From Rhodanobacteraceae bacterium (GTDB taxonomy: Bacteria > Pseudomonadota > Gammaproteobacteria > Xanthomonadales > SZUA-5), in the NCBI GenBank assembly GCA_024234055.1, contig JACKOW010000005.1, positions 186,667-250,666 of the forward strand: a DNA stretch of 64,000 nt, read 5' to 3'. Below, one piece after another: positions 13,838 to 61,480 of this stretch. Positions within the stretch are counted from its first letter, which is position 1. Every line of letters begins with the position of its first letter. Made by a program: the position numbers and the translations under genes. A model generated the notes under the pieces. The model was not told where the DNA came from. It searched no databases and worked only from the letters and a program-made list of their open reading frames with translations.

Positions 13838-14221
13838 TCAACCGGCCACGCTGCTGGCAGGCGGGTCACTGAGGATGCGCCGACTCAGCAGGAAGGAGAT
13901 CGGCACATTGATGACGATGGCGATGGCTCCCGCGGTGCGCGGACCCACGCCGAGCCCGTTCATCGAAAAGTGAATGACGGCGCTGCTGAGCGCATACATG
14001 GCGAGCTGCACCACGATGTAGCCCACGGCCTTGCGTCGCCCCAGTCTGCCCTGAAACACCACCCGCGTGTGCAGAAAGTAGCCCATCGCCAGGCCAATGC
14101 AGAACACGGTGAGAAAGGCCAGCTGCGGATGCCACCAGAACACCAGCAAGCAGTACAGACCGTAGGTGATCGAGGTATTGAAGGCCCCGATGACCAGAAA
14201 CCGCATCCCCTGCTTGAGCAT
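13838..14221 (-). CDS. GtrA-family membrane protein (lipid-linked sugar translocation)
   Basis: About 127 aa with 4 TM helices. MRFLVIGAFNTSITYGLYCLLV is the typical GtrA N-terminus. The ATG at 14221 abuts or overlaps the upstream stop (TGATG). Confidence 0.85.
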   Translation of the reverse strand: MLKQGMRFLVIGAFNTSITYGLYCLLVFWWHPQLAFLTVFCIGLAMGYFLHTRVVFQGRLGRRKAVGYIVVQLAMYALSSAVIHFSMNGLGVGPRTAGAIAIVINVPISFLLSRRILSDPPASSVAG

Positions 14222-15153
14222 CAACCGGCTTCCCCGAGCAGCGCCTGGAACTCCGCGTAGTCACGGATGTAGTCGGAAGCATCGTAGGGATGCGAAGCCA
14301 GCACGAGCAGCACGGCATCGGCGCTGTAACGAAACTGCGTGCCCCAGATCATCGGCGGCACGAAGAGCCCGACATCGGGCCGGTCCAGGCGGTACTGGGC
14401 GCGTTCGCGGCCATCATCGACCAGGGCCGATACCTGGCCATGCACACACACCAGAAACTGCGCACATAGGCGATGCGCATGTTCACCACGAACTTCGGCA
14501 CTGGGCACGTCGTAGACCATGAAGCAGCGCTGCGGCACGAAGGGCAGTTCGCGGCCGACCTCGCCTGCAGCCAGCGAGCCGCGCATGTCCACAGCCCGGG
14601 TCAATCGGCGCAGTTCGACGCCGCGGACTCGCCCGGCGGCCGGCAGCGGCTCCGGTGTGCGGCTGCCCGTCTCGAGTTCAACAGCACTGGTCTGGGTATA
14701 GCCAACGATGCGCGCCGGATTGCCGACCACGATGGCATTGGCCGGCACCGAGCGCAGCACCACGGCGCCTGCGCCGACCATGGCGCCGGGGCCGATGGTG
14801 ATTCCGGGCAGCAGCGTGGCATTGGCACCGATGGAGGCTCCTCGCTTCACCCAGGTCTGGGCAAAAGCCTCGGGGCGCTGCCGGCTGCGCGGAAAGCGGT
14901 CGTTGCTGAAAGTGGCGTTGGGGCCGACGAAGACATCGTCCTCCAGGCGCACGCCGTCCCACAGCTGCACCCCGCACTTCACGGTCACCCGATCACCGAC
15001 GATGACATCGTTCTCGACAAAGACCCCGTCACAGATATTGCAGTCGCGCCCCAGCCGGGCGCCGGGCAGGACATGGGCAAAGGCCCAGATCCGGGTGCCC
15101 TCGCCCACCGCCGCGCTCTCGCACAGGGCCTGAGGATGGATAAAGGCGCTCAC
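14221..15153 (-). CDS. wxcM: bifunctional WxcM-like protein: N-terminal left-handed beta-helix N-acetyltransferase (FdtC-like) + C-terminal FdtA/WxcM sugar 3,4-ketoisomerase cupin
   Basis: The N-terminal half has hexapeptide repeats (IHPQALCESAAVGEGTRIWAFAHVLPGARLGRDCNICDGVFVE...). The C-terminal half has DMRGSL...FVPQRCFMVYDVP...RGEHAH...PPMIWG, as in FdtA/WxcM. The GTG start overlaps the upstream stop (GTGA). Confidence 0.85.
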   Translation of the reverse strand: MSAFIHPQALCESAAVGEGTRIWAFAHVLPGARLGRDCNICDGVFVENDVIVGDRVTVKCGVQLWDGVRLEDDVFVGPNATFSNDRFPRSRQRPEAFAQTWVKRGASIGANATLLPGITIGPGAMVGAGAVVLRSVPANAIVVGNPARIVGYTQTSAVELETGSRTPEPLPAAGRVRGVELRRLTRAVDMRGSLAAGEVGRELPFVPQRCFMVYDVPSAEVRGEHAHRLCAQFLVCVHGQVSALVDDGRERAQYRLDRPDVGLFVPPMIWGTQFRYSADAVLLVLASHPYDASDYIRDYAEFQALLGEAG

Positions 15154-16100
15154 GGCTTTGCTCCCGGATAGCTCTGGGCATGCATCAACACCGCCAGCGG
15201 CCGCGCCTTGGTGTTCTCGTAGGCGCGCCAGACGTAGGCCCCGATGATGCCGAGGCCCAACAGATTGATGCCGGCAAAGAATAGTATGGTCAATACCGTG
15301 GCAGCATAACCGGGCACGTTCACGGCGCCGCTCAATCGTGCCACCAGCACGACCAGACCCATCAGCATCGACAGCGACAGCCCCAGGCCACCGGCCAGTG
15401 TGAACAGCCGGATCGGCAGGTCCGAGAACGCAAATACGCTGTCCATCAGATACTTGAGCTTGGCCTTGAAGCTCCAGGCGCTGACGCCGTGCTCACGGGC
15501 CTGGCGCACATAGGGCAGGGCCTGCCGGCGGAAACCCAGCCACAGGATCTGTCCGACCAGCGAGCTGTGTACTTCGTTGAACCTCAGCAGGTGCTGCCTG
15601 AAGGCGTCATTGCAGCCAAAGACGTCGATTCCTCCTGGAGGCAGTTCCTTTTGCACCAGCTTCCGGTAGCACCACCAGAACAGCCCTGAAGCCCAGCGAT
15701 CCATCGCCGCATCCTGGCGCCCGGCGCGATGACCGACCACCACGTCAGCGCCATCGGCACGGAGCACTGCAAAGAACTCGGAGATCAGCTCGATCGGCTC
15801 CTGCAAGTCCGCCGCCATCACCGCCGAATAGGGTGTACGCACATGCGCCAGTCCTTCCCGAATCGCAGCGAAGGACCCGAAATTTCGCGACAGCAGCAAC
15901 AACTGCGACGCATGCTCCTGCGCCGGGAGTGCCGCCGCCAGCAGCGCGTGCGATGAGTCTGGACTGCCATCCACCACGCAAATGACGTCGATGCCACCAG
16001 GCGTTTGCCGGTGGAGCAGCTGCAAGCGCTCGAGCAAGGCCGGAATGTTCTCGGCATTGCGGTACACCGGAATCACCACGGTACAGTCAACGGAAGGCAT
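15150..16100 (-). CDS. family-2 glycosyltransferase, polyprenyl-phosphate sugar transferase type (GtrB/ArnC-like)
   Basis: VVIPVYRNAENI...VDGSPDSS (GT2 DxD region) plus two C-terminal TM helices, the GtrB/ArnC architecture. ATG at 16100 is preceded by GAGG. The alternative GTG at 16118 lies further inside the upstream gene. Confidence 0.85.
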   Translation of the reverse strand: MPSVDCTVVIPVYRNAENIPALLERLQLLHRQTPGGIDVICVVDGSPDSSHALLAAALPAQEHASQLLLLSRNFGSFAAIREGLAHVRTPYSAVMAADLQEPIELISEFFAVLRADGADVVVGHRAGRQDAAMDRWASGLFWWCYRKLVQKELPPGGIDVFGCNDAFRQHLLRFNEVHSSLVGQILWLGFRRQALPYVRQAREHGVSAWSFKAKLKYLMDSVFAFSDLPIRLFTLAGGLGLSLSMLMGLVVLVARLSGAVNVPGYAATVLTILFFAGINLLGLGIIGAYVWRAYENTKARPLAVLMHAQSYPGAKP

Positions 16101-17184
16101 TGACGGCCTCGATGACACGATCGAGCTCCTCGTCGTTCAGCGCCGGATGGCAAGGCAGGCTGAGCACTTCCGCCACAGCTGCTTCGGTGACCGGCAAGGA
16201 GGGCGGCGTGGCTTCACGCCAGGCGGCCTGCCAATGGTCGGGAATCGGATAGTGCACATCGCTGTCGATGCCGTGCCCGGCCAAATGGGCACGCAGGGCA
16301 TCGCGATGCACACAGCGCAGCACGGCCAGATGAAATACGTCGTCTGGTCCCGCCGCCCGCGCCAGCAGCCGGATCAGCGGGTTGCGCAACTGTCCCTGAT
16401 AGCGTGCGGCGATGGCACGTCGGCGTTCGTTCTCGGCGTCCAGATGCAGCAGTTTGACCCCGAGCACGGCCGCCTGTAGCTCATCCAGTCGGGAGTTGCG
16501 CCCGCCTGCCAGATCCACTCGGTACTTGTCGGACCAGCCATACTGGCGCAGCTGGCGCACGCGACTGGCCAGTGCTTCGTCGGCGGTGAGCACGGCGCCG
16601 CCATCGCCGATGGCGCCGAGGTTCTTGGTCGGATAGAAGCTGAAACAGGCCAGTGCGCCAAAGCTGCCAGCGCGGCGGCCCTGCCGTTGCGCGCCATGGG
16701 CCTGGGCGCAGTCCTCGATCAGGGCGACACCATGCTGCTGACAGCGCGCAGCGATGCCCTCGGCGTCGGCCATCTGGCCGTACAGATGAGTCAGCACCAC
16801 TGCCTGCGGGCGCTCCGCCAGCGCCTGCTCCAGCGCGTCGTCATCAACCAGCAGGGTGTCTGCATTGACATCCAGATAGCGCGCCCGAGCACCGCAGGCA
16901 CGGATGGCGGTGGTCGCGTACCCGCCGGCGTTGGCCACGGTCAGCACCGTCGTGCCCGGACCCACATCCAGCGCTCGCAGCGACAGCTCCAGGGCATCGC
17001 TGCCGCTGGCGACGCCGATACCATGGGCTACGCCGATGTAGTCGGCAAAAGCCTGTTCAAAGTTGGAGACCGCCGGCCCCAGCACCAGACGACCGGAGGA
17101 CAACACCGCGTCGATGGCGTCGCGCATGAGTGCCAGACAGGGCGCCTGCACGCGCGGGGAGTCAAACATCCGTATCGCTTGCAC
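16087..17184 (-). CDS. DegT/DnrJ/EryC1/StrS-family PLP sugar aminotransferase (FdtB/WxcK-like)
   Basis: 365 aa. VLSSGRLVLGPAVSNFEQAFADYIGVAHGIGVASGSDALELSL and SFYPTKNLGA (PLP lysine) are family signatures. First gene of the five-gene operon. Confidence 0.9.
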   Translation of the reverse strand: MQAIRMFDSPRVQAPCLALMRDAIDAVLSSGRLVLGPAVSNFEQAFADYIGVAHGIGVASGSDALELSLRALDVGPGTTVLTVANAGGYATTAIRACGARARYLDVNADTLLVDDDALEQALAERPQAVVLTHLYGQMADAEGIAARCQQHGVALIEDCAQAHGAQRQGRRAGSFGALACFSFYPTKNLGAIGDGGAVLTADEALASRVRQLRQYGWSDKYRVDLAGGRNSRLDELQAAVLGVKLLHLDAENERRRAIAARYQGQLRNPLIRLLARAAGPDDVFHLAVLRCVHRDALRAHLAGHGIDSDVHYPIPDHWQAAWREATPPSLPVTEAAVAEVLSLPCHPALNDEELDRVIEAVNAFR

Positions 17185-17355
17185 GACAATCCTTGGGCCG
17201 GGTATGCGTGAAATCTACAGCAAGGCAGCAGGCCTTGCCGTGCCCTCGGCCCCGGCGCCCGAGCGTCTCAAACACACTGCGTAACAATCCGGGCCAATGA
17301 ATGTCATGTGAATGCGCCTAGAATACCGGCCCCCTTGCTGGCGCCGATGCCCTCC

Positions 17356-19518
<2,163 letters not shown>

Positions 19519-49579: not shown

Positions 49580-50101
49580 TCAGGGCACGGCGGGAGCCCG
49601 CGGTTTTCGACCCAGGAACTGATAGACACCCCGGTCTTCCAGGTGCTCGAAGCCGAGTCGCCGGTAGAGCTTGCAGGCCGGGTTGTCGGCCTCGACGTGC
49701 AGCGTGATCGTGGTGCGAGCGAGGTCCGCCTCCTCGATCAATTCGGCCAGCAGCGCCGAGCCGATGCCCTGGTGCTGGCGCTCACTCACCAGGGCAATAT
49801 CCATCAAGCGGATCTCGCCCGGTGAGCGGTACACGTAGATGCGCCCTATCGGATGTCCCGCCAGCTCGACCAGCAGACGATCAGCCCCGGGATAATGCTT
49901 TTCATAATGGGCGTGCTGCAGCTCGAACTGATCGCGCAAAAAGCGGCGCTTCTGCTCCTCGCTCCAAGGCACGGGCGCAAGCTCCAGCGCCCGCCCGGCG
50001 GCATACAGCTCGGCCAGAAATTCGTGATCGGCAGGGCCGATGGCACGCAGAGTCAGGCCAGCAGGTCGAGCTGCATGCGAAGGGGTTTGGAAGGCCCTCA
50101 A
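49580..50101 (-). CDS. GNAT-family N-acetyltransferase
   Basis: RQHQGIGSALL (acetyl-CoA Q/RxxGxG/A motif) and LYRRLGF. 173 aa. Lies 9 nt downstream of the preceding gene. Confidence 0.8.
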   Translation of the reverse strand: MRAFQTPSHAARPAGLTLRAIGPADHEFLAELYAAGRALELAPVPWSEEQKRRFLRDQFELQHAHYEKHYPGADRLLVELAGHPIGRIYVYRSPGEIRLMDIALVSERQHQGIGSALLAELIEEADLARTTITLHVEADNPACKLYRRLGFEHLEDRGVYQFLGRKPRAPAVP

Positions 50102-50110
50102 GCGCCGGCC

Positions 50111-50701
50111 TCAGCTGGTGCGGATCAGCAAGGTCTCGAAATCGCGGCGTTCCCCGCTGACCAGTCTCATTTCCCTCTTGATCGGGTCATAACGCAGCTG
50201 ATCAATCGACGGCGGCGCCGCCGTGGAACGCCTGGGCGTGACCAAGGCCAGCAGCCCGTTCGCCGGTAGCGAACTGCTCAGGGTACGCGCCATGCCGCGT
50301 TCATCAAGCACGGTGACTACCGCGTTCTTGCCCAGCGAGGAATCAAATTCCATGCGCAGATTGCCGGCCGCAGAGATCAGTCCCTGACCGAGACGACGTG
50401 CTTGCCAGGCATAGATCGTACGAAGCCCAGTCAAGGGATCGACCAACTGGATATCAAAATCCAGGCGGCTGACGCCGGAGGACAGCTCGGCGGGCAGGAA
50501 ACCGATCACTTCCACGCGATTGGCCACTCGAGTACCGGAATACGGGCTGAGTTCCACCGGCAACAGGGCGGCCGCCACGCGACTGTCTCCCAGCGGGAGG
50601 GCGCGTGTGTTCTGGGTCAGGGCGATCACGGGATCTCTCGCCCATGCCACCGCTCCGGCCGCAGCCAAGCTGCCCGCCACCAGGATATGCCTGCGTTTCA
50701 T
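50111..50701 (-). CDS. hypothetical exported protein with twin-arginine-like signal
   Basis: MKRRHILVAGSLAAAGAVAWA has an RR-type n-region plus an AxA site. No family recognised. Confidence 0.55.
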   Translation of the reverse strand: MKRRHILVAGSLAAAGAVAWARDPVIALTQNTRALPLGDSRVAAALLPVELSPYSGTRVANRVEVIGFLPAELSSGVSRLDFDIQLVDPLTGLRTIYAWQARRLGQGLISAAGNLRMEFDSSLGKNAVVTVLDERGMARTLSSSLPANGLLALVTPRRSTAAPPSIDQLRYDPIKREMRLVSGERRDFETLLIRTS

Positions 50702-50899
50702 GGTCTTCCCCCGTCGTACGTTGAGTCAGTGGGCAGCAAAACTCGCTCGCCTCGACAGCCCTGACAGAGTCGCAGACTGCGCTCGCCGGGAACTGCCGGT
50801 CAATGAATTCTATCGCCAACTGTGAGAATCATCGTATCGGCATCGATTCTGTTATCGTTTTCAGCCTTCACCGCGACTGCATGGATGAAGCACCGAAAC

Positions 50900-51202
50900 A
50901 TGAGCGATGATCCCTTGCTGGACCTGAGGCCTGCGCACTTTGAAGCGTGGGTGGGCAAACAACTGCCGATCGACTTCGGCCCGGGCGCGATCTCTGCGAC
51001 CATCACTGAAGTGCGCGCCATCGGCGGCTACACATCCAGACCCGGCGGAGGATTCTCGGTGACGCTGACGGCCAATGTCGGTGCCCAACCACAGCAAGGC
51101 ACATTCAGCGTGCAGCTTCCAGAGTTTGGGAGCCTGGGTCTGTTCATGTCACCGCGAAAACGAATCGCCGATCTGACCGAGTACGAAATCGTCTTCAATT
51201 GA
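50900..51202 (+). CDS. small hypothetical protein (~100 aa) convergent with the tail-collar operon; resembles the family I recall as DUF6916
   Basis: MSDDPLLDLRPAHFEAWVGKQL...GGFSVTLTA...QGTFSVQLPEFGSLGLFMSP...TEYEIVFN. The ...QGT(Y/F)...LF(L/M)xP...YE(A/I)VFN ending matches a small family I remember next to tail-collar genes. Unverified. Confidence 0.5.
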   Translation: MSDDPLLDLRPAHFEAWVGKQLPIDFGPGAISATITEVRAIGGYTSRPGGGFSVTLTANVGAQPQQGTFSVQLPEFGSLGLFMSPRKRIADLTEYEIVFN

Positions 51203-51291
51203 GCGGGACGCTGGTCTGGGATCCAGGTATTCCGACTCCTCGCGGGCTACCGAGTTCGTCCGGCGGGAAGATGGCAAAGCTGGTATGGCGC

Positions 51292-51316
51292 GGCAGCCGG
51301 GCTTTGCCCGGCTGCC
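51292..51316. terminator. GC-rich hairpin between convergent genes (possible bidirectional terminator)
   Basis: GGCAGCCGGGC TTT GCCCGGCTGCC: an 11-bp perfect stem with a 3-nt loop. No clear U-tract on either strand. Confidence 0.45.
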
Positions 51317-51324
51317 TCCCGTCC

Positions 51325-51843
51325 TCAAGTCCGAGGCGGGAAAACGCCCTGGAGGGCGATGCAGAAGTACAACGTCAGGTAGGGCTGCATGTTGTTGTGC
51401 GGTTGGTCCCCGCCAGCCGGACTGAGTGCGAGATCCGACATCGCGGTGACGGGGCCTGGCGTCATGTACGGTGTGGCACCGATGGCTCTTGCGAAAGCCG
51501 TGCCTGCCGGAGTCTGGGCGTCACCGGGTACCACCTGCGCCATCAGCCCGTGACCATGCGCAGGCATTTCGCTTTCCAGCAGCGATACCGTTTGGCTGCC
51601 GCCCGTCTCACCAAGATCATGCAAGGACAGTCCAGGACCCTGGCCCCAGAACATGGGAGCCCGTCCCTGCAGATCTGGCAATGCGAAATTGCTCTTGCCA
51701 TTGCCGCCGTAGGTGGTGCCAAGCAGCGAGAACAGCGCCGTGTTTTGACTCAGCGGCAGCAGCTGACCGTTGCACCATGCCCAGCCCCTGGGGGCGAAGT
51801 TGAAGGGAAAAATCCGAATCTCTGCAACAAATGGATCGGCCAT
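51325..51843 (-). CDS. stand-alone phage-tail-collar-domain protein, paralogue C
   Basis: MADPFVAEIRIFPFNFAPRGWAWCNGQLLPLSQNTALFSLLGTTYGG..FALPDLQGR; MPAHGHG (HxH); GGDQPHNNMQPYLTL. RBS GAGGG is fused to the upstream stop (TGAGGGCACCATCATG). Confidence 0.85.
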   Translation of the reverse strand: MADPFVAEIRIFPFNFAPRGWAWCNGQLLPLSQNTALFSLLGTTYGGNGKSNFALPDLQGRAPMFWGQGPGLSLHDLGETGGSQTVSLLESEMPAHGHGLMAQVVPGDAQTPAGTAFARAIGATPYMTPGPVTAMSDLALSPAGGDQPHNNMQPYLTLYFCIALQGVFPPRT

Positions 51844-51853
51844 GATGGTGCCC

Positions 51854-52357
51854 TCAGGTTGGACTCGGGAAGATGCCGTACAGCGAGATAATGAAACTCA
51901 CGCAGAGATAAGGCTGCATGTTGTTGTGCGGCTGACTCCCGCCCACGGAACTGATCGAGGTTGCGGCCATGGGTGCGGACGGCGGATTCGACTGGTAGAA
52001 ATCGAAACTCGTCGTCTGCGCAGGAACCTTTCCGGTAGGACCGGTATCGGTTGCCAGTCCGATCGAACCCAACAGGGGATGGGTGTGCGCGGCCATCTGT
52101 GCACTGGTCAGCGTGACTTCCTCCACGCCCCCACGTTCGGCAAGCACGAAGCCATTGCCGAAATGCAGCGGCACCCGGCCACGCAGATCGGGCAAGCCAA
52201 AAGTATTCTGACCGTCGCCACCGTAGGTGGTGCCGATCAGATTGAACAGCGTTTCGTTCTCGGAAATGGGCAGTAATTGCCCGGCGCAGAACATCCATCC
52301 GGCGGGCGCAAAATTGCCGGCGAACATCCGAATTTCCCCCACATAGGGCTGTGCCAT
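51854..52357 (-). CDS. stand-alone phage-tail-collar-domain protein, paralogue B
   Basis: MAQPYVGEIRMFAGNFAPAGWMFCAGQLLPISENETLFNLIGTTYGG..FGLPDLRGR; MAAHTHP; GGSQPHNNMQPYLCV. RBS AAGGAG is fused to the upstream stop (TGAAGGAGATAGTCATG). Confidence 0.85.
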   Translation of the reverse strand: MAQPYVGEIRMFAGNFAPAGWMFCAGQLLPISENETLFNLIGTTYGGDGQNTFGLPDLRGRVPLHFGNGFVLAERGGVEEVTLTSAQMAAHTHPLLGSIGLATDTGPTGKVPAQTTSFDFYQSNPPSAPMAATSISSVGGSQPHNNMQPYLCVSFIISLYGIFPSPT

Positions 52358-52368
52358 GACTATCTCCT

Positions 52369-52869
52369 TCAGGTCGGGGACGGAAAGATGCCCTGCAGGG
52401 CGATCGAGAAGTTCAGCGTCAGGAAAGGCATCATGTTCTGATGCGCCTGGCTGCCGCCCGCATTGGCCACTGTGCCCGCATTCATCGGCTGCAACTGGTC
52501 GGCGTTGCGATAGGTCGGAAGATTGCTCGGTGCCAGCATATTGTTGGCTGGTATCAGCTGAGTGCCGGCGGTGCTGGTGGCATTCAACACGTGGGTATGC
52601 GTCGGCATCTCGGCGATGCTCAGCGTATGCGCCTGTTCGCCGCCTCGCTCACCCAGCGTAAACGAGGATCCCACCTCGATGGGCACCCGCCCACGCAGAT
52701 CAGGCAGGGCGAAGTTCACCCGGCCATCCCCGCCGAAGGTGGTGCCCAGCAGTGAGAACAGGGCCTGATTCTGGTTGATCGGTAACAACTGACCGTTGCA
52801 CAACGCCCAACCCTTGGGCGCGAATCCGAAACTGAACACGCGAATTTCGGACAAAAAAGGCTCAGCCAT
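52369..52869 (-). CDS. stand-alone phage-tail-collar-domain protein, paralogue A
   Basis: MAEPFLSEIRVFSFGFAPKGWALCNGQLLPINQNQALFSLLGTTFGG..FALPDLRGR; MPTHTHV; GGSQAHQNMMPFLTL. AGGAG RBS. 73 nt downstream of the giant gene. Confidence 0.85.
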   Translation of the reverse strand: MAEPFLSEIRVFSFGFAPKGWALCNGQLLPINQNQALFSLLGTTFGGDGRVNFALPDLRGRVPIEVGSSFTLGERGGEQAHTLSIAEMPTHTHVLNATSTAGTQLIPANNMLAPSNLPTYRNADQLQPMNAGTVANAGGSQAHQNMMPFLTLNFSIALQGIFPSPT

Positions 52870-52942
52870 GGCTTTGCTCCTGATGTGTACTTGTTCCGAC
52901 GACCCGTGCGGGTCGCCGGCCTTCCCCCCGTGTTGTAGTACC

Positions 52943-55900
52943 TCAGGGCGGCGTGATCAGCGGCCCGGGTATCAGGCTGCAGCCAGCAGAACCGCTGGCG
53001 CTGCCGGTATTGGCATTCTCTGGTGACGTCAGAACCGCCGTGGCGTTGGCATTGGCCGGCGGCGGATCGACGACCTGGCAATCACCGGCCCCACCCTCGT
53101 GGGCGATCAGGAAGGTGGACTGCAAATCGAAGCTCGCCCCGACCGGCACGACATTGTTGCGGAAGTCGTTCCGCGCGCGGTTTCCACCGCCAGCCCCTGT
53201 GATGGCTTGGCTGATGATCGCCGCCAGCGGGAATCCCGAGGTGTCATTGGGGTTGACGTTGCTGTTGAGCACCTGCAGATCGAGCCCGCTGGTTGAAGTA
53301 AACGACGCGCCCGCATCCCGACTGGTTGCGTCGATACCGCGTCCGTTGGGACACTGACGCAGCAGCGTGTTGTCGACAATCACAGCGGAGGACGCGTCGC
53401 GGTTGTGCACCAGCCGGATGCAGTTGCCGATGGCCGAACCCGAGCTAGCCACCGCCTGATCGCCCACGTCCACATTCAGAATTCGACCGCGGTAGGTACC
53501 CACAGCCGTAGCGGCGCCCGGCACGCCGTAGTTGCCATTGAAGCCATGCGAGTTCATGCCGGAAATCCGGCCCGCCGCACCGTTCTGGTTGCGGACGATG
53601 TACTGCATGGAAGCCGGTGCCACCGCCGAAAGGTCGTAGGCGATCTGCGCATTGCGGGTGATGTTGCCATCGAAGATCAGATTGGCCACGCTGGAGCTTC
53701 CGCCGCTGGCCAGCACCTGGACCGGAATCACTCGAATCCCGGTGATGGTATTGCTGGATACGGTACCTCCGGTCAGCGCCGCCGAGCCCGAGAGATCGAT
53801 CAGCAGACCCGAGTTACCGACGGCCGGATCGTTGTTGGTCAATGTGGAGCCACTCATGTTGAAGCTCAACGAGCCGGACGTGTTGGCGATGCGGACGACG
53901 TCGTAGTAGTTCTGATTCAAGGTAGTGTTGGTGATGCTCCAGGCACCGGAAGCCTGGGTCACGTCGATACCACTCTCGTTGACTGCGTTTCCGTTGTTGG
54001 AGACCACCGAAGTGCTCAGAGCGAATCCGTTGATGCCGCTGCCGGCGATACCGTCGTTGCCGCCGCCGCTGACGAACAGCCGCGTGGCGCTGAAGCCCTG
54101 AGTATTGGTCAAGGACACGCCGGCGCTGGTGCTGTTCTGGATAGCGCCGCCGGTACAGGTGCCGGCGCTGGAACACGCGCCACCGTTGCCGGTGATGACC
54201 AGGCCGCCGCTGGCACCCGTGCTGTTCAGCACAATGCCGCTGACCGCACCGTTGCTGCTGGCCGACTGGAAAGTGACGTTGCTGGCCGAGATCGTGGTGT
54301 TAGCAATGTTGATTGCAGCGCCCGTGGTGCTGGTCACGGAGTTACCGCTGCCCTGCACGCTGACCGTGCCGCCGCCGGTGGCGCTGAAACCGGTGCCGGT
54401 GGTGGTAGCGATCGCCAGACCGCCATTGATGAAGTTGATGGTGGCGCCGGTATTGGAGGTCAACGTCACCGCCGCGGAGGCGCCGGTACTCAGCGCCTTG
54501 CTGGCGCCACTGAAACTCACGCTGCCGGCATTTCGATTGAGCACGTCCACACCCGTACAAGTGCCAGTACAGCTCAGATTGCCGCTGAGCGTGACGGTAC
54601 CGCCGGCGGCGCCGCTGATCTGGACCAGCTTGCCCGCATTGGCCTTGGTGATTGTTCCGCCGTAGCTCGTGGTGCCGAGGCTGCCTTGCCCCAGGAAGGC
54701 CGTCCCGGTTGGCGCAGTGATGCTGCCGCCAGCGATGGCGACGGTGCCGGTGAGGTTGTTCAGGTTGACACCCTGGGTCGGGCTGTTGGTCGAACTGGCG
54801 CTGGTCAGCGTCAGGCTGAGAGCGCTGCCCGTGGAATTCAGCGCGGCCCCGCCGGTTGCATTCAGGCTGCCGGCGGTGGTGGTCACGGTGCCGGCGGAAT
54901 TGTCAACGGTCAGGGCTGTGCCTGCGCCTGTGGTCACACTCAGACTGCCCAGGTTGATCGGCGCTGCGTTGGCGTTGAGATTGACACCGGCTCCGGCGCT
55001 GGACTTGTTGACGGTGACACCACCGGTGAAGGTGGCACTGCCGCCCGCCGGCGTGTTGACGATGCTGATCGCGGTGCCGTTGACGTTGCCGATGTTCACC
55101 GCTCCGGTTATCGACCAGGTGCCGCTGACAGCGTCGAGCCCGATGCCCTGCAGGTTGCCGCTGGCGACGTCGACGTCGATGAAGTTACCGTTGAGCGTAC
55201 CGTTGGTCAGACCCAGGGCGCGGCCATCGCCGTTCAGCGTCAGCTCCGCCACGGTCAGGGTGCCGAATGCGGTGCCTGAGATCTTCGTGCCTGTCGCAAT
55301 GGTATCGCCGACGATGAATCCGCGCAGGGTGTTGCCGGTGCCCAGGCTGAGGCAGTTCGCGACAGCGCAGGTGATGGTCGGCGCGTTGCCTCCCAGGGCC
55401 GGGAATGCGCTGCCGGCGATCGGGGTGATGCCGCTGATCGTGGCCAGATCGCTGACCGATCCCTGACCGATCAACCGTTCCCCCGCCTCCAGCAAGATGC
55501 CACCGGTGTACGGATTGGCATCGAAAGCCAGGAAGATCGTGTCATTGGACGAGTCTACTGCGGCTGCGGCGCCGAGGGTCTGGAACGGACGCGCCTGAGT
55601 ACCAATGCCGCCCACTGCCGCAGCAGCGTCGACGAACCAGACCAGTTCGGTGTTCTGCAGCGTGAACACGACATTGGCGGTGTCACCGCCGGTCACGGTG
55701 TAGCAGAAGGTCCGCGTGGCGTTGGCCACTGCCGCTGGCGGCTCGTAACTGAAGCTGCCATTGGCATTCAGCGTCAATCGACCATTGGCAGCACCGGCAT
55801 CAAGCTGGGCGCCGGGCGCAGTGCCGGTGCAGGCCGGGGCGAAACCGAATCCAGTAATCGTGCCGGCACCAAGGACATCGTTGGCAACCACACCACCGCC

Positions 55901-58900
55901 CTGCGGGCTGGCAACACCGATGCCCAGCGTCAGATGAGGCGTGACCGTGTAGGCATCGTCCAGCGCCACCGCGGCATAGGTGAAGCTGGCCGTGAAATCC
56001 GCAGCCAGGTTGTCGGGCGGATCAATGGCGTCGGCGTCGGTAATGCCCGCGGCGCGCACGGTCAGCGTACAGGTGGCACCTGCGATCGCACTGTCGAGCG
56101 GATTCAGTACCACGCTCGATGCCGGACTCGCGGTGACCACGGTGAAGTTGACCGGCGAGGTCGCCGGGCATTCCAGGTCAAAGCTGGTGTTGGCGGCATT
56201 GGCCGTGGTGTCGAAATTGACCGACTCACTGAAGTTGATGGTGATGTTGCTGGTCGGATCGACCGACGTCGCGGAGTTGGCTGGCGTAGTCGAGGTGACG
56301 CTTGGCGCCGCATCGACACTGAAAGTCCGCACGAAATTCGCCACCATATTGTTTGGCGGATCGTTGAGGTCGGTGTCGCTGACCTGGGCCGCAACCACCG
56401 TCAGCGAGCAAGCGGCGCCCTGCGGCAAGCCGCCAGTGGGGGTCAGCGTGATCGTGTTGGTGTTCGTTGCCGGCAAGGCCGGCACGCTGCTGAAGGGCAC
56501 GCCCGCACCGCAATTCAGGGTGAAGGCACTCGCCGTCAGGTCGACGTTCTCGCTGAAGTTGACGGTCAACAGCTGAGTACTGGGCACCACTGCGGCCTCA
56601 GCGGGGGTGGCAGTCACCACCGTCGGCGCTGCATCCGTGGTAAAGCTCCAGGTGAAGTTGCTCACCATCTGGTCGGGCGGATCGATGGCGTCGGCGTCGG
56701 TCACCAGCGTGGCCACCACCGTGCCGTTGCAGGTGGCCCCTTCGGGCAGATTGACACTGGGCGTCAGCGTGATGGTGTTGGTGTTGCTCGCCGGCAGGCC
56801 ACCGCTGAAGGTCACGGGGGTACCGCAGTTCAGTGTCACGCCTCCGGCAGCAACATTGACCGCCTCGCTGAAATTCACGGTGATTGTGGTGTTGGTGGCG
56901 AGGTTGCTGGCGCCGTTGCCTGGCAGCACAGAGCTGACGCTCGGTGCCGAATCCACCGTGAAGGTCGACACGAAGTTGGCCGCCATATTGTCTGGCGGAT
57001 CGATCAGATCGCTGTCGGTGATGTTGGCGGCGAGCACGGTCAGGGTGCAGGTGGCGCCACTCGGCAGCGGCGGCGCATAGGTCGGCGTCAGGCTGGGTAC
57101 GTTTGTGCCGGTGGTACCGCCAGTGATCAGGTTGGCACCACCACAGGTGAGCGTGACCGATCCAGCCGTGGCATCAACATTTTCGGTGAAGACCACGTTC
57201 AGCGGGGCGTTGCTTGCCACCGTCGCCCCATTGGCGGGTGACACTGACTGAACGGCCGGCGGATTGTCATTGACCGACGTGAAGCTCAGCACGAAGTTGG
57301 CGGCCATCGTATCCGGCGGATCGGCCGCATCGACATCGCTGATGCCGGCGGCCAAAGCGGTCACCGTGCACAGCGTGTTGATTGGCAGCAGCGAGGTCGG
57401 CGTCAATGTCGCGGTGGCGGTCCCGCTGCCGGCGACAGTGAAGGTGACCGGGGCGCCGCAGTTGTAGGTGAAGCTCGGCACACCGAAATTCACCGGCTCG
57501 CTGAATGTGAAGCTGACTACGCCAGCCAGCGGCACACTTGTGGCGCCAGTGGTTGGGTTGCTGCTGCTCACGCTGGGCGCCGCGTCAACGCTGAAGTTGC
57601 GAACGGTGTCAGCAATCGGATTGTTTGGCGGATCGATGGCATCAACGTCGGCGATTTGCGCAGCCACGGCAGTGGCGGTGCAGTTGCTGCCTTCCGGCAG
57701 TGCGGCGCTTGGGGTAAAGGTCAGCGTCGCCGTGCCAGATCCGCCGATGGCGCCCGCGATCGGCGCACCGCAGTTCAGGGTGATCGCGCCACCGAGATTG
57801 TTGACCGGCTCATCGAAACTGAAGCTCACAATCTGACTGGTGGCCACCACGGCAGCGGCCGCCGGGACGGCGCTGACAAAGGTCGGGGCTGCGTCGACGC
57901 TGAAGTTGACGGTGACGTTCGCCGGGAGATTGTCGGGCGGATCGAAACCATCGACGTCAGTGATGTTGGCCGCGATCAGGGTTGCGGTGCAGGCGGCGCC
58001 GTTGGGCAGGGCCGCTGCGGGCGTAAAGGTGAGGGTGCTGGTGCCCGACCCACTCGGGGTCACGGCAATGGGGCCGCCGCAGTCGAGCGTGAATCCACCC
58101 ATGCCGAAATTGACCGGCTCGCTGAACACGGCGCTGAATGTGGCGTTGTTGGCGACGGTAGCGCCGGCGGCTGGCGTCGAACTGACAAACGCGGGTGCAG
58201 CGTCAACGGTGAAGGTGGCCGTGAAGTCGGCAGCCGGATTGTTCGGCGGGTCAATGAGATCTACGTCACTGACGCTGGCGGCCGGCACGAACAAGGTGCA
58301 GCTACCCGAAGGCAGCGGTGCGGCGTAGGTCAGATTCAGACTGGTGACTGCCGATCCGGTGCTGCCACCGGTGATCAGATTGGGGCCGCCGCAGGTCAGC
58401 GTGATGCCCGCGACCACATTCACCGATTCGCTGAAGTTGACGGTGACGGCGACGTTGTTGGCAGTGGTGGCACCGTTCGCCGGCACGCTGGTCACCACCG
58501 GTGCCGCATCGACGTTGACGGTGATGATGTCGGTGTCGGTCAACACTCCGCCCAGACCAGTATTACCCTGGTCATTGGTGATCACGGTAATGCTGCGCGC
58601 TGCCGAGGTGCCCGGCACTGGTGTGTAGGTCAGGCTGCCGCCGGGGCCATTCAGCGCCGCGTTGAGCGCCGTCAGGGTACCCGTGGCGATCACCAGGTCG
58701 CTGCCGTTGCCGGTCAGACTGGTCAATGCGCCGCCAGGATTGGCCAGCGTCAGCGTGCCGTTGGCCGGCGCGCCGGTGACCAGACTGATTTGCAGGATAC
58801 CGGCGCCGGCGTCGATGTCGGCGATGCTGATGGCATTGGTATTGGCAGTGCTGAACACCACCGGCACGGTGTCACCGGTGCTCTGCGCGGCAGGCACGGT

Positions 58901-61342
58901 GTTGACCGGCGGATCGTTGACCGCAAGCACAGTGATGGTGAAGCTCTGCGGCGCGCTGGTGTCGATGCCGCCGTTGGCGGTGCCGCCGTTGTCCATCAGG
59001 TTCAATGTGACCGTGGCGACGCCGTTGGCATTCGCCGCCGGCGTGTAGGTCAGCACGCCGGCAGGACTCACCGTCGGTGCCGTGCTGAACAACGCCGGGT
59101 TGGTGTTCCCGGTGATGTTGAAGGTCAGGGTCTGGCCTGCCTCATCCGGCGGGCCGGCACTGATCGTCGTGGCCCAGGGATTCACCGTCTGCGGACCGGA
59201 ATCCTCGTTCACGCTCTGGTTCGGGCCGGCGGTGAAACTCGGCGCATCGTTGACCGCGGTCACGGTGATCGTGAAGCTCTGCGGCGGCGAGGTGTCGAAG
59301 CCACCATTGGCGGTGCCACCATCATCCATCAGGTTCAGCGTGATCGTGGCCGTGCCATTGGCATTGGCGGCTGGCGTGTAGCTGAGCACACCGGTGGGGC
59401 TGACCGTGGGGCCGGCACTGAACAGCGCCGGATTGGTATTGCCGGTGATGTTGAAGCTCAGCGCCTGCACGACTTCCGGATCGCCATCATCGATACCGGT
59501 GGCCCAAGGACTGACCGTTTGCGGACCGGCGTCTTCGAGCACGGTCTGGTTGGGACCGGCCGTGAACACCGGCACATCATTGACCGAGGTCACGGTGATG
59601 GTGAAGGTCTGATCGGCACTGACATCGATGCCGCCGTTGGCGGTGCCGCCATCATCACGGGCACGCACGGAGATCGTGGCCACTCCATTGGCGTTCGCCG
59701 CCGGGGTGTAGGTCAGCGTGCCGGCTGCATCCACTGCCGGAGACGCGCTGAACAAGGCCGCATTGGTGTTGCCGGTGATCTCGAAGGTGACTGTCTGGCC
59801 GGATTCGTCCGGCGGTCCGGGACTGATCGCCGTCGCCCACGGGTTCACGGTCTGTGGGCCGGCGTCCTCCAGAACGATCTGGCTCGGGCCGGCGACAAAG
59901 CTCGGCGCATCGTTGACCGCGGTCACCGTGATCGTGAAGCTCTGCGGCGCGCTGGTGTCGATGCCACCATTGGCGGTGCCGCCATCGTCCATCAGGTTCA
60001 GCGTGATCGTAGCCGTCCCGTTGGCATTGGCCGCTGGTGTGTAGCTGAGCGCGCCGGTCGGGCTGACCGTGGGGCCGGCACTGAACAGCGCAGGATTGGT
60101 ATTGCCGGTGATGTTGAAGCTCAGCGCCTGCACGACTTCCGGATCGCCATCGTCGACGCCGGTGGCCCAGGGATTGACTGTCTGCGGACCTGCATCCTCG
60201 AGCACGGTCTGGTTGGGACCGGCCGTGAACACCGGCACATCATTGACTGGCGTGATGTTGATCGTGACCGTCGCCGGCGACGCACTCACCACCTGACCAT
60301 CGAAGGCGTTGTAGGTGAAGGTGTCCGGACCATTGGCGTTGGCGTTCGGCGTGTAGCTGAAACTGCCATTGGGGTTCAGCGTCAACACGCCCTTGGTCGG
60401 TCCGGCCACCAACTGCGCGGTGATCGGATCCCCATCGGGATCGGAGTCGTTACCGAGTACACCAGGGGCTGCCACATTGAGTACCGTGTCCTCCAGCGTG
60501 CTGTAGCTGTCATTGACAGCCACCGGCGGACGGTTCTCGGCATCGACGACATCGATACGGAAGTGCAGATTCGGGCGCACATCGACGCCGAAGGCGGCGA
60601 CGATGTCGGTTCCGCTCAAGGGCGGCACGGAGTCACCGATGGCGTCGGTGCCGATGGGCGCATCGCCGGCCCAATCTCCAACCTGCCCGTCAGCGATATG
60701 GGTGACCACCGCCCAGGCAGCCACTCCCAACGACAGGAAGGCGCCAACCATCAGCGTCTGCGCCAGCAGCCGATTTCGCCGCAGGCTGCGCACTGCCAAC
60801 GTGGCAAGGGCCAGAGCCAGGAGCAGACCACCGAAGAAACCGAGTGTGGGAATCAATGCCGGGCTGCCGATCACCATCGGCAGCCCGTTGGCGGTGCCGT
60901 CGACCGTGTACAGCACATCAACGGATCCGCTGGCGCTCTGGGCGCCGATGCCGATCCGGACCTGCGGCTCGACGCCGGGCAGCAGGGAACGGGCGATGGA
61001 CAGCTCGATCACGTCGGCGGCGGCGCCTCCCCCCAAGGGCAGGCCGTTGTTCAGGCCCACCGGGTAGTTGGCAGACAGCGCGCTGCCCGGCGCGAAGCTA
61101 CCGGCCACGCAAGGAGACAGGGTTCGGGCAGTGACGACGGGCGGTGAACCGCTGACCGTGGCCGTGAGCCGATAGTCCGCGCCCAGGAAGGTCTGCCCGC
61201 CGCCAGAGGCGGTACAGCCGGTGGTGTTGCGCAGATCACTATCGATGTAGACGTGATAGCTGTAGGTCTGAGCGGGTGCCGCAAGGGCGATGAACTGCAG
61301 CACTGCTGCGACGATCACACACCCAAAACTACGCATGCTCAT
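52943..61342 (-). CDS. giant (~2,800 aa) Sec-dependent surface protein: N-terminal domain + internal IPTL-like TM hairpin, cadherin-like/VNDxP repeats, eight Big_5 Ig-like repeats, C-terminal ~850-aa parallel beta-helix
   Basis: A single uninterrupted ORF. Signal peptide MRSFGCVIVAAVLQFIALAAPAQT. PALIPTLGFFGGLLLALALATLAVRSLRRNR at aa ~170-200. PPVAVNDSY...DSDPDGD; four ~111-aa VND(V/A)P(V/S)F units; eight ~105-aa AAPxVxSxxPAxGAT...FSExV...(L)xCG...C(T)...DxDxxDPP(N/D)N units; PbH1-like repeats (ITNTTLNQNYYDVVRIANTSGS, STLTNND). Start 61342 or 61336 preferred over 61369. Confidence 0.9.
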   Translation of the reverse strand: MSMRSFGCVIVAAVLQFIALAAPAQTYSYHVYIDSDLRNTTGCTASGGGQTFLGADYRLTATVSGSPPVVTARTLSPCVAGSFAPGSALSANYPVGLNNGLPLGGGAAADVIELSIARSLLPGVEPQVRIGIGAQSASGSVDVLYTVDGTANGLPMVIGSPALIPTLGFFGGLLLALALATLAVRSLRRNRLLAQTLMVGAFLSLGVAAWAVVTHIADGQVGDWAGDAPIGTDAIGDSVPPLSGTDIVAAFGVDVRPNLHFRIDVVDAENRPPVAVNDSYSTLEDTVLNVAAPGVLGNDSDPDGDPITAQLVAGPTKGVLTLNPNGSFSYTPNANANGPDTFTYNAFDGQVVSASPATVTINITPVNDVPVFTAGPNQTVLEDAGPQTVNPWATGVDDGDPEVVQALSFNITGNTNPALFSAGPTVSPTGALSYTPAANANGTATITLNLMDDGGTANGGIDTSAPQSFTITVTAVNDAPSFVAGPSQIVLEDAGPQTVNPWATAISPGPPDESGQTVTFEITGNTNAALFSASPAVDAAGTLTYTPAANANGVATISVRARDDGGTANGGIDVSADQTFTITVTSVNDVPVFTAGPNQTVLEDAGPQTVSPWATGIDDGDPEVVQALSFNITGNTNPALFSAGPTVSPTGVLSYTPAANANGTATITLNLMDDGGTANGGFDTSPPQSFTITVTAVNDAPSFTAGPNQSVNEDSGPQTVNPWATTISAGPPDEAGQTLTFNITGNTNPALFSTAPTVSPAGVLTYTPAANANGVATVTLNLMDNGGTANGGIDTSAPQSFTITVLAVNDPPVNTVPAAQSTGDTVPVVFSTANTNAISIADIDAGAGILQISLVTGAPANGTLTLANPGGALTSLTGNGSDLVIATGTLTALNAALNGPGGSLTYTPVPGTSAARSITVITNDQGNTGLGGVLTDTDIITVNVDAAPVVTSVPANGATTANNVAVTVNFSESVNVVAGITLTCGGPNLITGGSTGSAVTSLNLTYAAPLPSGSCTLFVPAASVSDVDLIDPPNNPAADFTATFTVDAAPAFVSSTPAAGATVANNATFSAVFSEPVNFGMGGFTLDCGGPIAVTPSGSGTSTLTFTPAAALPNGAACTATLIAANITDVDGFDPPDNLPANVTVNFSVDAAPTFVSAVPAAAAVVATSQIVSFSFDEPVNNLGGAITLNCGAPIAGAIGGSGTATLTFTPSAALPEGSNCTATAVAAQIADVDAIDPPNNPIADTVRNFSVDAAPSVSSSNPTTGATSVPLAGVVSFTFSEPVNFGVPSFTYNCGAPVTFTVAGSGTATATLTPTSLLPINTLCTVTALAAGISDVDAADPPDTMAANFVLSFTSVNDNPPAVQSVSPANGATVASNAPLNVVFTENVDATAGSVTLTCGGANLITGGTTGTNVPSLTPTYAPPLPSGATCTLTVLAANITDSDLIDPPDNMAANFVSTFTVDSAPSVSSVLPGNGASNLATNTTITVNFSEAVNVAAGGVTLNCGTPVTFSGGLPASNTNTITLTPSVNLPEGATCNGTVVATLVTDADAIDPPDQMVSNFTWSFTTDAAPTVVTATPAEAAVVPSTQLLTVNFSENVDLTASAFTLNCGAGVPFSSVPALPATNTNTITLTPTGGLPQGAACSLTVVAAQVSDTDLNDPPNNMVANFVRTFSVDAAPSVTSTTPANSATSVDPTSNITINFSESVNFDTTANAANTSFDLECPATSPVNFTVVTASPASSVVLNPLDSAIAGATCTLTVRAAGITDADAIDPPDNLAADFTASFTYAAVALDDAYTVTPHLTLGIGVASPQGGGVVANDVLGAGTITGFGFAPACTGTAPGAQLDAGAANGRLTLNANGSFSYEPPAAVANATRTFCYTVTGGDTANVVFTLQNTELVWFVDAAAAVGGIGTQARPFQTLGAAAAVDSSNDTIFLAFDANPYTGGILLEAGERLIGQGSVSDLATISGITPIAGSAFPALGGNAPTITCAVANCLSLGTGNTLRGFIVGDTIATGTKISGTAFGTLTVAELTLNGDGRALGLTNGTLNGNFIDVDVASGNLQGIGLDAVSGTWSITGAVNIGNVNGTAISIVNTPAGGSATFTGGVTVNKSSAGAGVNLNANAAPINLGSLSVTTGAGTALTVDNSAGTVTTTAGSLNATGGAALNSTGSALSLTLTSASSTNSPTQGVNLNNLTGTVAIAGGSITAPTGTAFLGQGSLGTTSYGGTITKANAGKLVQISGAAGGTVTLSGNLSCTGTCTGVDVLNRNAGSVSFSGASKALSTGASAAVTLTSNTGATINFINGGLAIATTTGTGFSATGGGTVSVQGSGNSVTSTTGAAINIANTTISASNVTFQSASSNGAVSGIVLNSTGASGGLVITGNGGACSSAGTCTGGAIQNSTSAGVSLTNTQGFSATRLFVSGGGNDGIAGSGINGFALSTSVVSNNGNAVNESGIDVTQASGAWSITNTTLNQNYYDVVRIANTSGSLSFNMSGSTLTNNDPAVGNSGLLIDLSGSAALTGGTVSSNTITGIRVIPVQVLASGGSSSVANLIFDGNITRNAQIAYDLSAVAPASMQYIVRNQNGAAGRISGMNSHGFNGNYGVPGAATAVGTYRGRILNVDVGDQAVASSGSAIGNCIRLVHNRDASSAVIVDNTLLRQCPNGRGIDATSRDAGASFTSTSGLDLQVLNSNVNPNDTSGFPLAAIISQAITGAGGGNRARNDFRNNVVPVGASFDLQSTFLIAHEGGAGDCQVVDPPPANANATAVLTSPENANTGSASGSAGCSLIPGPLITPP

Positions 61343-61480
61343 GGAATCCCCGTTGCATTTGGTCGTCATTTCCAGCCACGCAGAATGCTCTCAACAAGCC
61401 CTGAATTTCAATCATTCATGAGACTCAATCGGATCAGTGGCGAGCTTCTTGGGTGCTATGTCGCGAGGGCGACAAATGTC

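Follow-up and report, generated by a model that had tools for sequence, protein, structure and literature searches.

The locus described here raises the question of why a bacterial chromosome should carry three consecutive genes for phage-tail-collar-like proteins next to the gene of a giant surface protein. It lies in a stretch of 64,000 nucleotides (nt) from a Rhodanobacteraceae bacterium (GenBank assembly GCA_024234055.1, contig JACKOW010000005.1, positions 186,667 to 250,666 of the forward strand), hereafter called the window. A preliminary description of this DNA had taken the block 50900-61369 as a single non-phage operon and a candidate surface-fibre or contact system. Comparison with related loci indicates that the block extends from 49580 to 61480, beyond the five open reading frames (ORFs) noticed at that time, and that it is one copy of a widespread gene module of cellular, non-viral nature. 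Besides the giant gene and the collar genes A, B and C, the module contains genes for a small DUF6916 protein, a GNAT acetyltransferase and, usually, a small protein with a candidate twin-arginine signal. We lean towards the reading that A, B and C make up an A:B:C heterotrimeric knob, similar to the tip of a phage fibre, which serves the co-encoded surface fibre.

Spread and cellular context of the module

A genome scan with one genome per GTDB species gave at least 575 confirmed relatives, of which the best 80, ranked by their match to collar A, were compared; genes in these loci were called as greedy ORF picks in high-GC DNA. The proteins of these 80 loci are 69-79% identical to collar A of the window and come from Acidobacteriota (28 loci), Gammaproteobacteria (16), Chloroflexi (10), Verrucomicrobia, Bacteroidota and Alphaproteobacteria (6 each), Actinomycetes (4), Betaproteobacteria (2), Gemmatimonadales (1) and unclassified Pseudomonadota (1), indicating that the module is spread over at least nine bacterial phyla or classes. 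In almost all of them the triplet (proteins of about 166, 167 and 173 amino acids, aa) keeps its order and its tight spacing.

Linkage of the triplet to the giant gene and to a small ORF ending in YE(A/I)VFN, as expected from the preliminary description, was found to be strong among the 54 loci having at least 3 kb of flanking sequence on both sides. An adjacent gene of at least 900 aa on the same strand (or its truncated fragment of at least 400 aa) is present in 49 of these loci and a DUF6916 gene is located near the triplet in 48, while a GNAT gene is found there in 37 and a gene for a small twin-arginine-signal protein in 28. As a background, only one out of 202 genes away from the triplet reaches 900 aa. 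The other five loci have a giant which is encoded on the opposite strand, is broken into fragments, or escaped the count because of an ORF-overlap artefact. Most of the Proteobacteria and Acidobacteriota have the giant upstream of the triplet, and Verrucomicrobia, Chloroflexi and Bacteroidota have it downstream. Independent annotations of other genomes give the same combination:

Aminobacter pANY103a: 4158-aa protein, three tail fiber proteins, 494-aa protein, GNAT, and a 91-aa ORF on the other strand
Rhizobium bangladeshense p5: immunoglobulin (Ig)-domain protein, three tail fiber proteins, N-acetyltransferase, and a 97-aa ORF on the other strand
Paenibacillus pART37: Ig-like protein, GNAT, three tail fiber proteins
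Anaerolineae genome: DUF6916, GNAT, three Collar proteins, 2928-aa protein (CLIPPER, Cadherin_5, Big_9, PKD_4)
Verrucomicrobiota metagenome-assembled genome: three Collar proteins, GNAT, DUF6916, 343-aa protein, 3985-aa protein (Cadherin_5, Big_9)

We regard these module-level facts, namely the module itself, its gene order and its breadth, as very secure. Metagenome contigs with an identical collar B represent the same locus as the window; a seemingly different upstream gene in two of them (L002 and L003) was rejected on account of scaffold gaps of ~100 nt in contigs which are 95-99.6% identical to the window. Some loci carry two or three triplets in tandem, each beside its own large gene (L052, 3733-13306; L059, 3398-12365; L087, 1-5456, with nine collar genes within 5.4 kb). 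Two of the copies in L052 and L059 are 97-100% identical, which may reflect a recent duplication or an assembly artefact, and these copies are identical or uninformative as to the specificity of a triplet for its giant.

No phage genes were found among the 30 other largest genes of the window, in agreement with the earlier statement that nothing else phage-like is present in the 64 kb. These are ordinary chromosomal genes, including those for malic enzyme, MacB/FtsX, a Na/H exchanger, sugar modification, AnmK, an M23 peptidase, CysS, ThiG, an M13 peptidase, MatE, PriA and a TauE-family protein. Phage or tailocin structural genes, the neighbours that had been named as decisive for a prophage origin, were also not found beside the triplet in any of the 80 related loci or in the annotated isolates.

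These observations bear directly on the possibility of a prophage or tailocin which has decayed until only its fibre genes were left. The collar proteins do match Pfam Collar and a PHROG tail-protein family, and PGAP labels them as 'tail fiber protein', as such a remnant would lead one to expect. However, apart from the lack of any other phage gene in the 64 kb or beside the triplet in the 80 loci, identity to phage proteins does not exceed 40% as compared to 69-79% among cellular copies from different phyla, and the best phage match, at 40% identity, is to the C-terminal parts of minor tail proteins which are themselves much longer. A decaying element would also not be expected to show strong purifying selection or to keep a fixed synteny with genes of non-phage type. 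We consider this origin extremely improbable, and it is effectively refuted already.

The best match in IMG/VR (L086, 6531-12183; 55% identity) was tried as a phage carrying the triplet and rejected, since the triplet and GNAT lie in the host flank beyond a tyrosine integrase (gene order: tyrosine integrase, DUF2076 gene, 253-aa ORF, triplet, GNAT). Collar triplets can thus inflate prophage boundaries, and the labels 'tail fiber protein' and 'microcystin-dependent protein' are misleading for prophage prediction.

Layout of the window locus

The features of the module in the window are as follows:

52943-61369, minus strand: gene of the giant surface protein (2808 aa), with seven Big_5, Big_9 and Cadherin_4/5 domains (Pfam) and a tandem-95 repeat (NCBIfam)
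60704-61342, minus strand: N-terminal module of the giant (aa 10-222), from hydrophobic segments and alignment with 17 other giants
52946-53935, minus strand: C-terminal domain of the giant, ~330 aa (aa 2479-2808), directly upstream of the collar genes, from an iterative profile
52369-52869, minus strand: collar A, 166 aa, MAEPFLSEIR... (PF07484, E 2e-28)
51854-52357, minus strand: collar B, 167 aa, MAQPYVGEIR... (PF07484, E 1e-29)
51325-51843, minus strand: collar C, 172 aa, MADPFVAEIR... (PF07484, E 2e-27; weak Gp10_C match)
50900-51202, plus strand: convergent gene of the DUF6916 protein, 100 aa, C-terminus TEYEIVFN (PF21880, E 3e-14)
50111-50701, minus strand: X196, candidate twin-arginine-signal protein of the TatX family, 196 aa, N-terminus MKRRHILVAGSLAAAGAVAWA (iterative searches)
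49580-50101, minus strand: GNAT acetyltransferase, 173 aa (Acetyltransf_1/3/7/10)
52896-52919, minus strand: GC-rich hairpin in the giant-collar A gap, 10-bp stem (gap -22.2 kcal/mol, z -1.9)
51292-51316, no strand assigned: GC-rich hairpin where the genes of collar C and DUF6916 converge, 11-bp stem GGCAGCCGGGC/GCCCGGCUGCC
61370-61480, minus strand: low-GC intergenic stretch upstream of the giant, candidate promoter region (48% GC as compared to 65-75% in the flanks)

The five ORFs of the preliminary description, their gaps, the overlaps of stop codons with ribosome-binding sites (RBS) and both hairpins were all found again, and the block was seen to continue to 49580 with X196 and GNAT, the stop of the former being 9 nt from the start of the latter. 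Giant and collar A are separated by 73 nt, where an AGGAGC RBS lies 8 nt ahead of the collar A ATG and 3' of the 52896-52919 hairpin. The gaps between collars A and B and between collars B and C are only 11 and 10 nt long, and in both of them the stop codon merges with the next RBS (TGAAGGAG and TGAGGG, respectively). Such coupling fits an equimolar synthesis of A, B and C.

The proposal of a single operon appears to be only partly right. The DUF6916 gene, on the plus strand, separates collar C from the X196-GNAT pair, which implies no fewer than three transcription units, namely giant-A-B-C, DUF6916 and X196-GNAT. The hairpin between collar C and the DUF6916 gene, which had been described as strong, is real as a stem with a modest z. 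The proposed promoter region ahead of the giant has the expected low GC content within a window of ~65% GC overall, but a sigma-70 consensus scan of 61370-61480 gave no match, and promoter and terminator consensus scans gave nothing above the shuffled expectation. As the start codon of the giant, an in-frame ATG at 61342 (MSMRSF...), with GGGGA ahead of it, is perhaps preferable to the ATG at 61369.

Two other features of the window were noted. At 17308-19518 (plus strand) is a 736-aa protein in which two Big_5 domains, an Ig-like repeat type also present in the giant, are fused to Endonuclease_1, and which is probably a secreted or surface nuclease. A sugar-modification cluster at 14221-17184 (minus strand; WxcM/FdtA-like protein with hexapeptide repeats, family-2 glycosyltransferase, DegT aminotransferase) lies 35 kb from the module, and no connection between the two was seen.

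Proteins of the module

All three collar proteins score 95-102 bits with Pfam Collar, for which the gathering cut-off is 24. The earlier view that they consist of nothing but this domain did not hold, because Pfam Collar covers only residues 8-63 and a further ~100 aa follow, which have their counterpart in the distal region of phage tail proteins, as seen in alignments. These ~100 aa contain an invariant HxH motif (H91 and H93), a variable stretch and then a C-terminus of the form GGSQPHNNMQPY...GIFPS. PHROG 9116 (phage tail protein) was aligned with the collar protein over aa 8-159, and the long tail fibre of PDB 8KEC was matched with an E value of 5e-5. From these alignments, A, B and C appear to be collar plus fibre-tip proteins without a shaft and not bare collar domains; they begin at the collar itself (residues 1-8), and an N-terminal shaft or virion-attachment region is absent. 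In the T4 proteins gp12 and gp37, the HxH motifs of the three chains of a trimer coordinate a metal ion.

The mean identity between proteins of the same position in different loci is 74% for A, 73% for B and 75% for C, whereas it is 48-52% across positions, which equals the value within a locus. For all of the 204 collar proteins tested, the nearest protein from another locus has the same position. By these measures the division into A, B and C is ancient, each of them being an orthologous group of its own. The N-termini, MA(E/Q/D)P(F/Y)...EIR in the preliminary description, proved to be nearly invariant across loci and specific to each paralogue (MAEPFLSEIR, MAQPYVGEIR and MADPFVAEIR). In the alignment, 46 columns are fixed in all the three groups and 24 more are fixed but group-specific. 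Residues 1-94 and 136-166 are 86-90% identical across lineages, whereas residues 95-135 are only ~30% identical; such a frozen scaffold with a variable stretch is the pattern of a receptor-binding tip.

Within the same loci, GNAT is 44% and DUF6916 32% identical. As a recent wholesale transfer of the cluster would leave neighbouring genes equally similar, this points to an unusually strong constraint on the collar proteins specifically. Collar identity is 0.746 within a phylum or class and 0.739 between them, and the same taxon provides the nearest collar neighbour in only 31 of 67 cases, so that almost no phylogenetic signal is seen. The weak signal could be due to a saturated variable region on a frozen scaffold, to frequent transfer, or to both. 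The protein family of collar A comprises at least 8000 clusters in the protein search, named 'microcystin-dependent protein' (COG4675) or 'tail fiber protein'. The exoproteome and secretome literature searched for collar proteins gave nothing usable.

The giant was described earlier as having a Sec signal peptide. A signal peptide is indeed there, but the N-terminus holds more than that: the signal peptide is followed by a ~130-aa domain with the motif 'YxVYIDSDxNxxTGC', an IPTL-like motif, a second helix and a 'DGQVGDWAG' domain, with hydrophobic segments at aa 10-37, 165-186 and 201-227. The motif ALIPTLGFFGG is followed by a hydrophobic helix and RSLRRNR (aa 171-200) and then by the second hydrophobic helix, which ends in AWA (aa 201-222). 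This layout aligns in 17 other giants and is reminiscent of a sorting signal of the IPTL-CTERM type in a mid-protein position, suggesting that the giant may be cut or anchored there. The scores of the window giant with the NCBIfam model midcut-by-XrtH (NF033207) are 22.7-24 bits, below the cut-off of 45, and IPTL_CTERM (TIGR04174) was not reported for it; the relative L017 reaches 34.9 bits with the latter (cut-off 20.5). No exosortase-like gene was seen in the window.

Among the families expected earlier, Collar in all three small proteins, DUF6916 and Big_5 were found, but Beta_helix was not detected in the giant by the Pfam scan. The repeat types of the giant are common to the giants of other loci. 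Its ~330-aa C-terminal domain is also the C-terminus of the giants in 37 other loci, as seen with an iterative profile, and has no match in Pfam, PDB sequences, PHROG or PADLOC; the search of PDB sequences with the C-terminal 752 aa was likewise without match. The partner protein carries an autotransporter beta-domain in Rhizobium bangladeshense and three SLH domains in Paenibacillus. Judged from these architectures, the constant feature of the partner is a surface-displayed Ig/cadherin-repeat protein, the export route of which varies by lineage. Since the large partner proteins carry different, lineage-appropriate surface anchors, the function as a surface-fibre or contact system, which we infer from sequence, is strengthened.

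DUF6916 diverges fast, although its C-terminus is kept as (Y/F)E(A/I)(V/I)F(N/T/S). A profile search gave 918 relatives as compared to 3 with a single sequence, the latter search being word-based. The AlphaFold2 (AF2) model of DUF6916, from a 73-sequence alignment, has a predicted local distance difference test (pLDDT) value of 90 and shows two short helices and a six-stranded beta-barrel; a likeness to PilZ-like small barrels was weak (E > 0.2) and was not adopted. A second form of DUF6916, ~150-180 aa long and with an N-terminal RRxFL-type signal, occurs in 19 loci.

X196 has no match in Pfam or NCBIfam. Its N-terminus looks like a twin-arginine signal (as read from the motif). It belongs to a fast-evolving family, TatX, which iterative searches traced to 24 loci, the window among them, mostly at the position next behind collar C, and an RRxFL-type N-terminal motif is present in 24 of 25 TatX proteins, X196 included. 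TatX and the DUF6916 form with a twin-arginine translocation (Tat) signal never share one locus; that TatX is a diverged DUF6916 was rejected (hhalign probability 0.9%). The presence of a putative Tat-signal protein in the module bears directly on the export puzzle of the signal-less collar proteins. In three loci (L084, 15071-16555; L028 and L082, ~11570-12890; Aminobacter and Mesorhizobium) the slot between collar C and GNAT holds instead a protein of 430-494 aa, with an Ala/Lys/Pro-rich N-terminus and no twin-arginine motif, which replaces TatX.

A member of the GNAT family is found near the triplet in 50 of 81 loci, and in Paenibacillus its gene overlaps the start of collar A. RimI, with which the window GNAT has a sub-threshold affinity, is the N-terminal-alanine acetyltransferase of ribosomal protein S18.

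Another reading of the module is that of a competition or defence device. In one version the collars would be a released receptor-binding decoy or a bacteriocin-like lectin, which would coat rival cells or block the receptors of phages; in another, GNAT would be a toxin and DUF6916 the matching antitoxin, with no relation to the collars. GNAT has the size of TacT/AtaT-type toxins, an ORF of ~100 aa follows it in some phyla, and arms-race proteins typically combine a conserved scaffold with tips that are hypervariable. However, PADLOC models match none of the seven module proteins, no toxin domain was detected with Pfam or NCBIfam, the best match of GNAT is RimI, and DUF6916, often on the opposite strand to GNAT, is a beta-barrel and not an antitoxin of the ribbon-helix-helix (RHH) type. 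A device of this kind therefore seems very unlikely to us.

A putative tip complex, its rivals and known systems

In the favoured reading, A, B and C would assemble 1:1:1 into one heterotrimeric knob of ~54 kDa, held together by a metal to which each chain contributes its invariant HxH, and the hypervariable loops of aa 95-135 would form its ligand-binding face, as in the distal tip of a phage fibre. The giant linkage argues for a knob which serves the fibre; it would work with the giant as a recognition or adhesion device, being its head, cap or docking partner. That A, B and C form one heterotrimer is probable, by analogy and on the basis of the fixed copy number and order, translational coupling, equal conservation with group-specific residues, and the virophage precedent discussed below.

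The remaining steps are more speculative. The trimer might fold in the cytoplasm and be exported by piggy-backing on the Tat-signal partner, which would fit with a metal-containing complex folded in the cytoplasm. For GNAT, the Met-Ala N-termini, which are invariant in the collar proteins, might be the target of acetylation, and DUF6916 might be an assembly factor or adaptor.

The phage collar and tip domains known so far are normally homotrimers (as in T4 gp12 and gp37), which raises the alternative of three separate homotrimeric lectin-like knobs, either merely co-regulated with the giant or acting independently on other cells. The adjacent paralogues gp10, gp11 and gp12 of T4, each homotrimeric, offer a parallel to the triplet, and collar C has its weak Gp10_C match. 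L059, moreover, has two identical triplets beside two giants of different length, suggesting that one triplet type is not matched to a single giant. Against this stand the strictly kept order and 1:1:1 copy number, the translational coupling and the equal conservation of the three groups, as well as a giant linkage far above background; the closest analogue that has been tested, also with three consecutive collar genes of equal size, yields a heterotrimer. We consider separate homotrimers unlikely.

A number of points weigh against the heterotrimeric surface knob. For collar A, an AF2 prediction of the monomer from a 33-sequence alignment reached a pLDDT of only 45 and was uninformative. Such a value is to be expected from an intertwined trimer and a shallow, 80%-identical alignment, and the failed model fits an obligate oligomer without proving it; by itself, the model does not separate a heterotrimer from three homotrimers. 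A Foldseek search with the DUF6916 model found nothing at E <= 0.001 in PDB or BFVD. The best NCBIfam match of GNAT, RimI (TIGR01575), reaches 45.7 bits against a cut-off of 86.4, suggesting a generic GNAT with RimI-like affinity, and GNAT is found in only about two-thirds of the loci.

Both hairpins have z values of only -1.9 to -2.0 and neither has a U-tract, and the operon structure, with its at least three implied units, is putative. Moreover, the 80 loci are those best scoring to collar A, and statistics drawn from them describe a close clade and not all of the Collar-domain proteins.

Export is a further difficulty. The preliminary description had noted the absence of signal peptides, and none is present in A, B, C or the short, window-type DUF6916. 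The Tat pathway reaches the periplasm only, and thus does not explain surface delivery in diderms, for example beside an autotransporter partner; besides, a Tat-signal partner was detected in only the 28 of 54 loci given above.

The same absence of signal peptides, shared with GNAT, suggests that the collars may instead remain inside the cell, in a cytoplasmic complex with DUF6916 and GNAT which modifies, chaperones or regulates the giant before its export, or which senses a conserved intracellular ligand. A scaffold identity of 86-90% from monoderms to diderms fits a universal intracellular partner better than variable surfaces. COG4675 proteins were among those detected in a soil metaproteome study (PMC5579227), indicating that relatives are expressed in situ, and this is compatible with an intracellular place as well. 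However, every known relative of the collar fold is an extracellular receptor-binding tip, the hypervariable aa 95-135 look like an outward-facing specificity loop, and Tat-signal partners recur, including the Tat-signal forms of DUF6916. An intracellular role therefore appears quite unlikely, and the surface knob remains the reading to which we incline.

A wider form of the surface knob can be put forward tentatively, as a possibility that we hold with less confidence. The module would then be a pan-bacterial, non-viral surface recognition system, in which a heterotrimeric knob of the phage receptor-binding kind folds around a metal in the cytoplasm, is exported in this folded state, through the Tat partner or an unrecognised route, and docks on giant fibres. 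If true, a scaffold that hardly changes between Actinomycetes and Proteobacteria would point to a partner conserved in all of them, the specificity being set by the hypervariable loops, and a phage-tip-like fold would have been domesticated in at least nine phyla or classes together with a new export solution.

The interest of the locus lies in a fixed multi-gene module of extraordinary cross-phylum conservation which is tied to large surface proteins. A receptor-binding tip trimer is known from phages and virophages; what is new is a fixed cellular triad wired to giants and to a set of GNAT, DUF6916 and Tat-signal proteins. The statement that no function has been characterised for this gene combination held, as the literature searched contains neither a description of it nor a mention of DUF6916. 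If the favoured reading is true, the module would represent a common but unstudied means by which bacteria of soil and water furnish their surface fibres with a recognition head of the phage kind. It would also provide a tail-fibre tip which is heterotrimeric by nature, each chain bringing its own set of hypervariable loops, and a concrete case in which to examine the way that proteins without a signal arrive at the cell surface in a folded state. The carriers include culturable bacteria (Aminobacter, Mesorhizobium, Rhizobium bangladeshense, Chiayiivirga flava, Paenibacillus, Comamonas and Deinococcus), which makes the question directly testable.

Several known systems resemble single parts of the module. 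The giant shares with the giant repeat adhesins LapA, SiiE and MpIBP a length of multiple thousand residues, tandem Ig/cadherin-like repeats and a distinct C-terminal region. Unlike these adhesins, it is accompanied by a collar triplet and has a Sec signal and a candidate internal signal of the IPTL type at the N-terminus; Pfam and NCBIfam searches found in the giant and its neighbours no repeats-in-toxin (RTX)/type I secretion system (T1SS) signal and no genes for an ATP-binding cassette (ABC) transporter, membrane fusion protein (MFP) or TolC. In its mid-protein arrangement of IPTL-like motif, hydrophobic helix, Arg cluster and second membrane helix it is similar to proteins of the IPTL-CTERM/midcut-by-XrtH type; in contrast to them it remains below both cut-offs, whereas relatives such as L017 pass TIGR04174.

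The rhiABC and mrpAB operons are similar to the module in having a cellular, non-phage Collar-domain protein (RhiB; MrpB, which is RhiB-like) in a small operon. Together with mrpC, they are the source of the COG4675 name 'microcystin-dependent protein'. RhiB, however, shares only the collar core of ~45 aa (33% identity), and its N-terminus and tail differ. That rhiABC is the same system was rejected on pRL10, where RhiA and RhiC match no module protein and the annotated rhi region contains no triplet, giant, GNAT or DUF6916. In Microcystis, MrpA and MrpB have been described as RhiA-like and RhiB-like (PMC3328848), and the operon is linked to the dominant extracellular glycoprotein MrpC, implicated in cell-cell contact (PMC3328848; PMC13133039). 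Compared by published description only, Mrp is a thematic parallel.

Phage fibre tips (T4 gp12 and gp37, actinophage minor tail proteins, 8KEC) have the collar, the HxH motif and the conserved C-terminal strands in common with the collar proteins, and their alignments cover nearly all of the 166-aa collar protein. These phage tips are the C-terminal ends of long homotrimeric fibre proteins encoded in structural modules, whereas the tip in the window stands alone from residue 1, is made in three fixed paralogues and has a far more conserved scaffold.

In the virophage DSLV2, three consecutive PF07484 genes encode proteins which were purified together as a complex of ~55 kDa with 1:1:1 stoichiometry and which make a 16-nm fibre; each of these proteins, ~58 kDa in total, is a collar followed by a tip, and its distal patch near residues 120-145 is flexible (PMC12724248). 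The window likewise has three consecutive, co-oriented PF07484 genes of similar small size. The virophage proteins, however, are virion components encoded beside capsid genes and bind cyanobacterial lipopolysaccharide (PMC12724248), whereas the module in the window is chromosomal, with priA, a TauE-family gene and cysS in the same window, and is linked to the giant, GNAT and DUF6916. Two or three consecutive collar genes were also observed in virophage-sized IMG/VR contigs of ~17-22 kb (L098, L099, L101, L104, L110, L116, L118 and L123), matching the published tripartite tails of virophages. The genes of such virophage-like contigs, the ~17-kb ones among them, are longer (180-240 aa) and only 33-36% identical to the window. 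While the window has neither virion genes nor a fibre shaft of the phage kind, the tripartite heterotrimer of virophages, together with the phage fibre tips, is closest to the module in its working principle.

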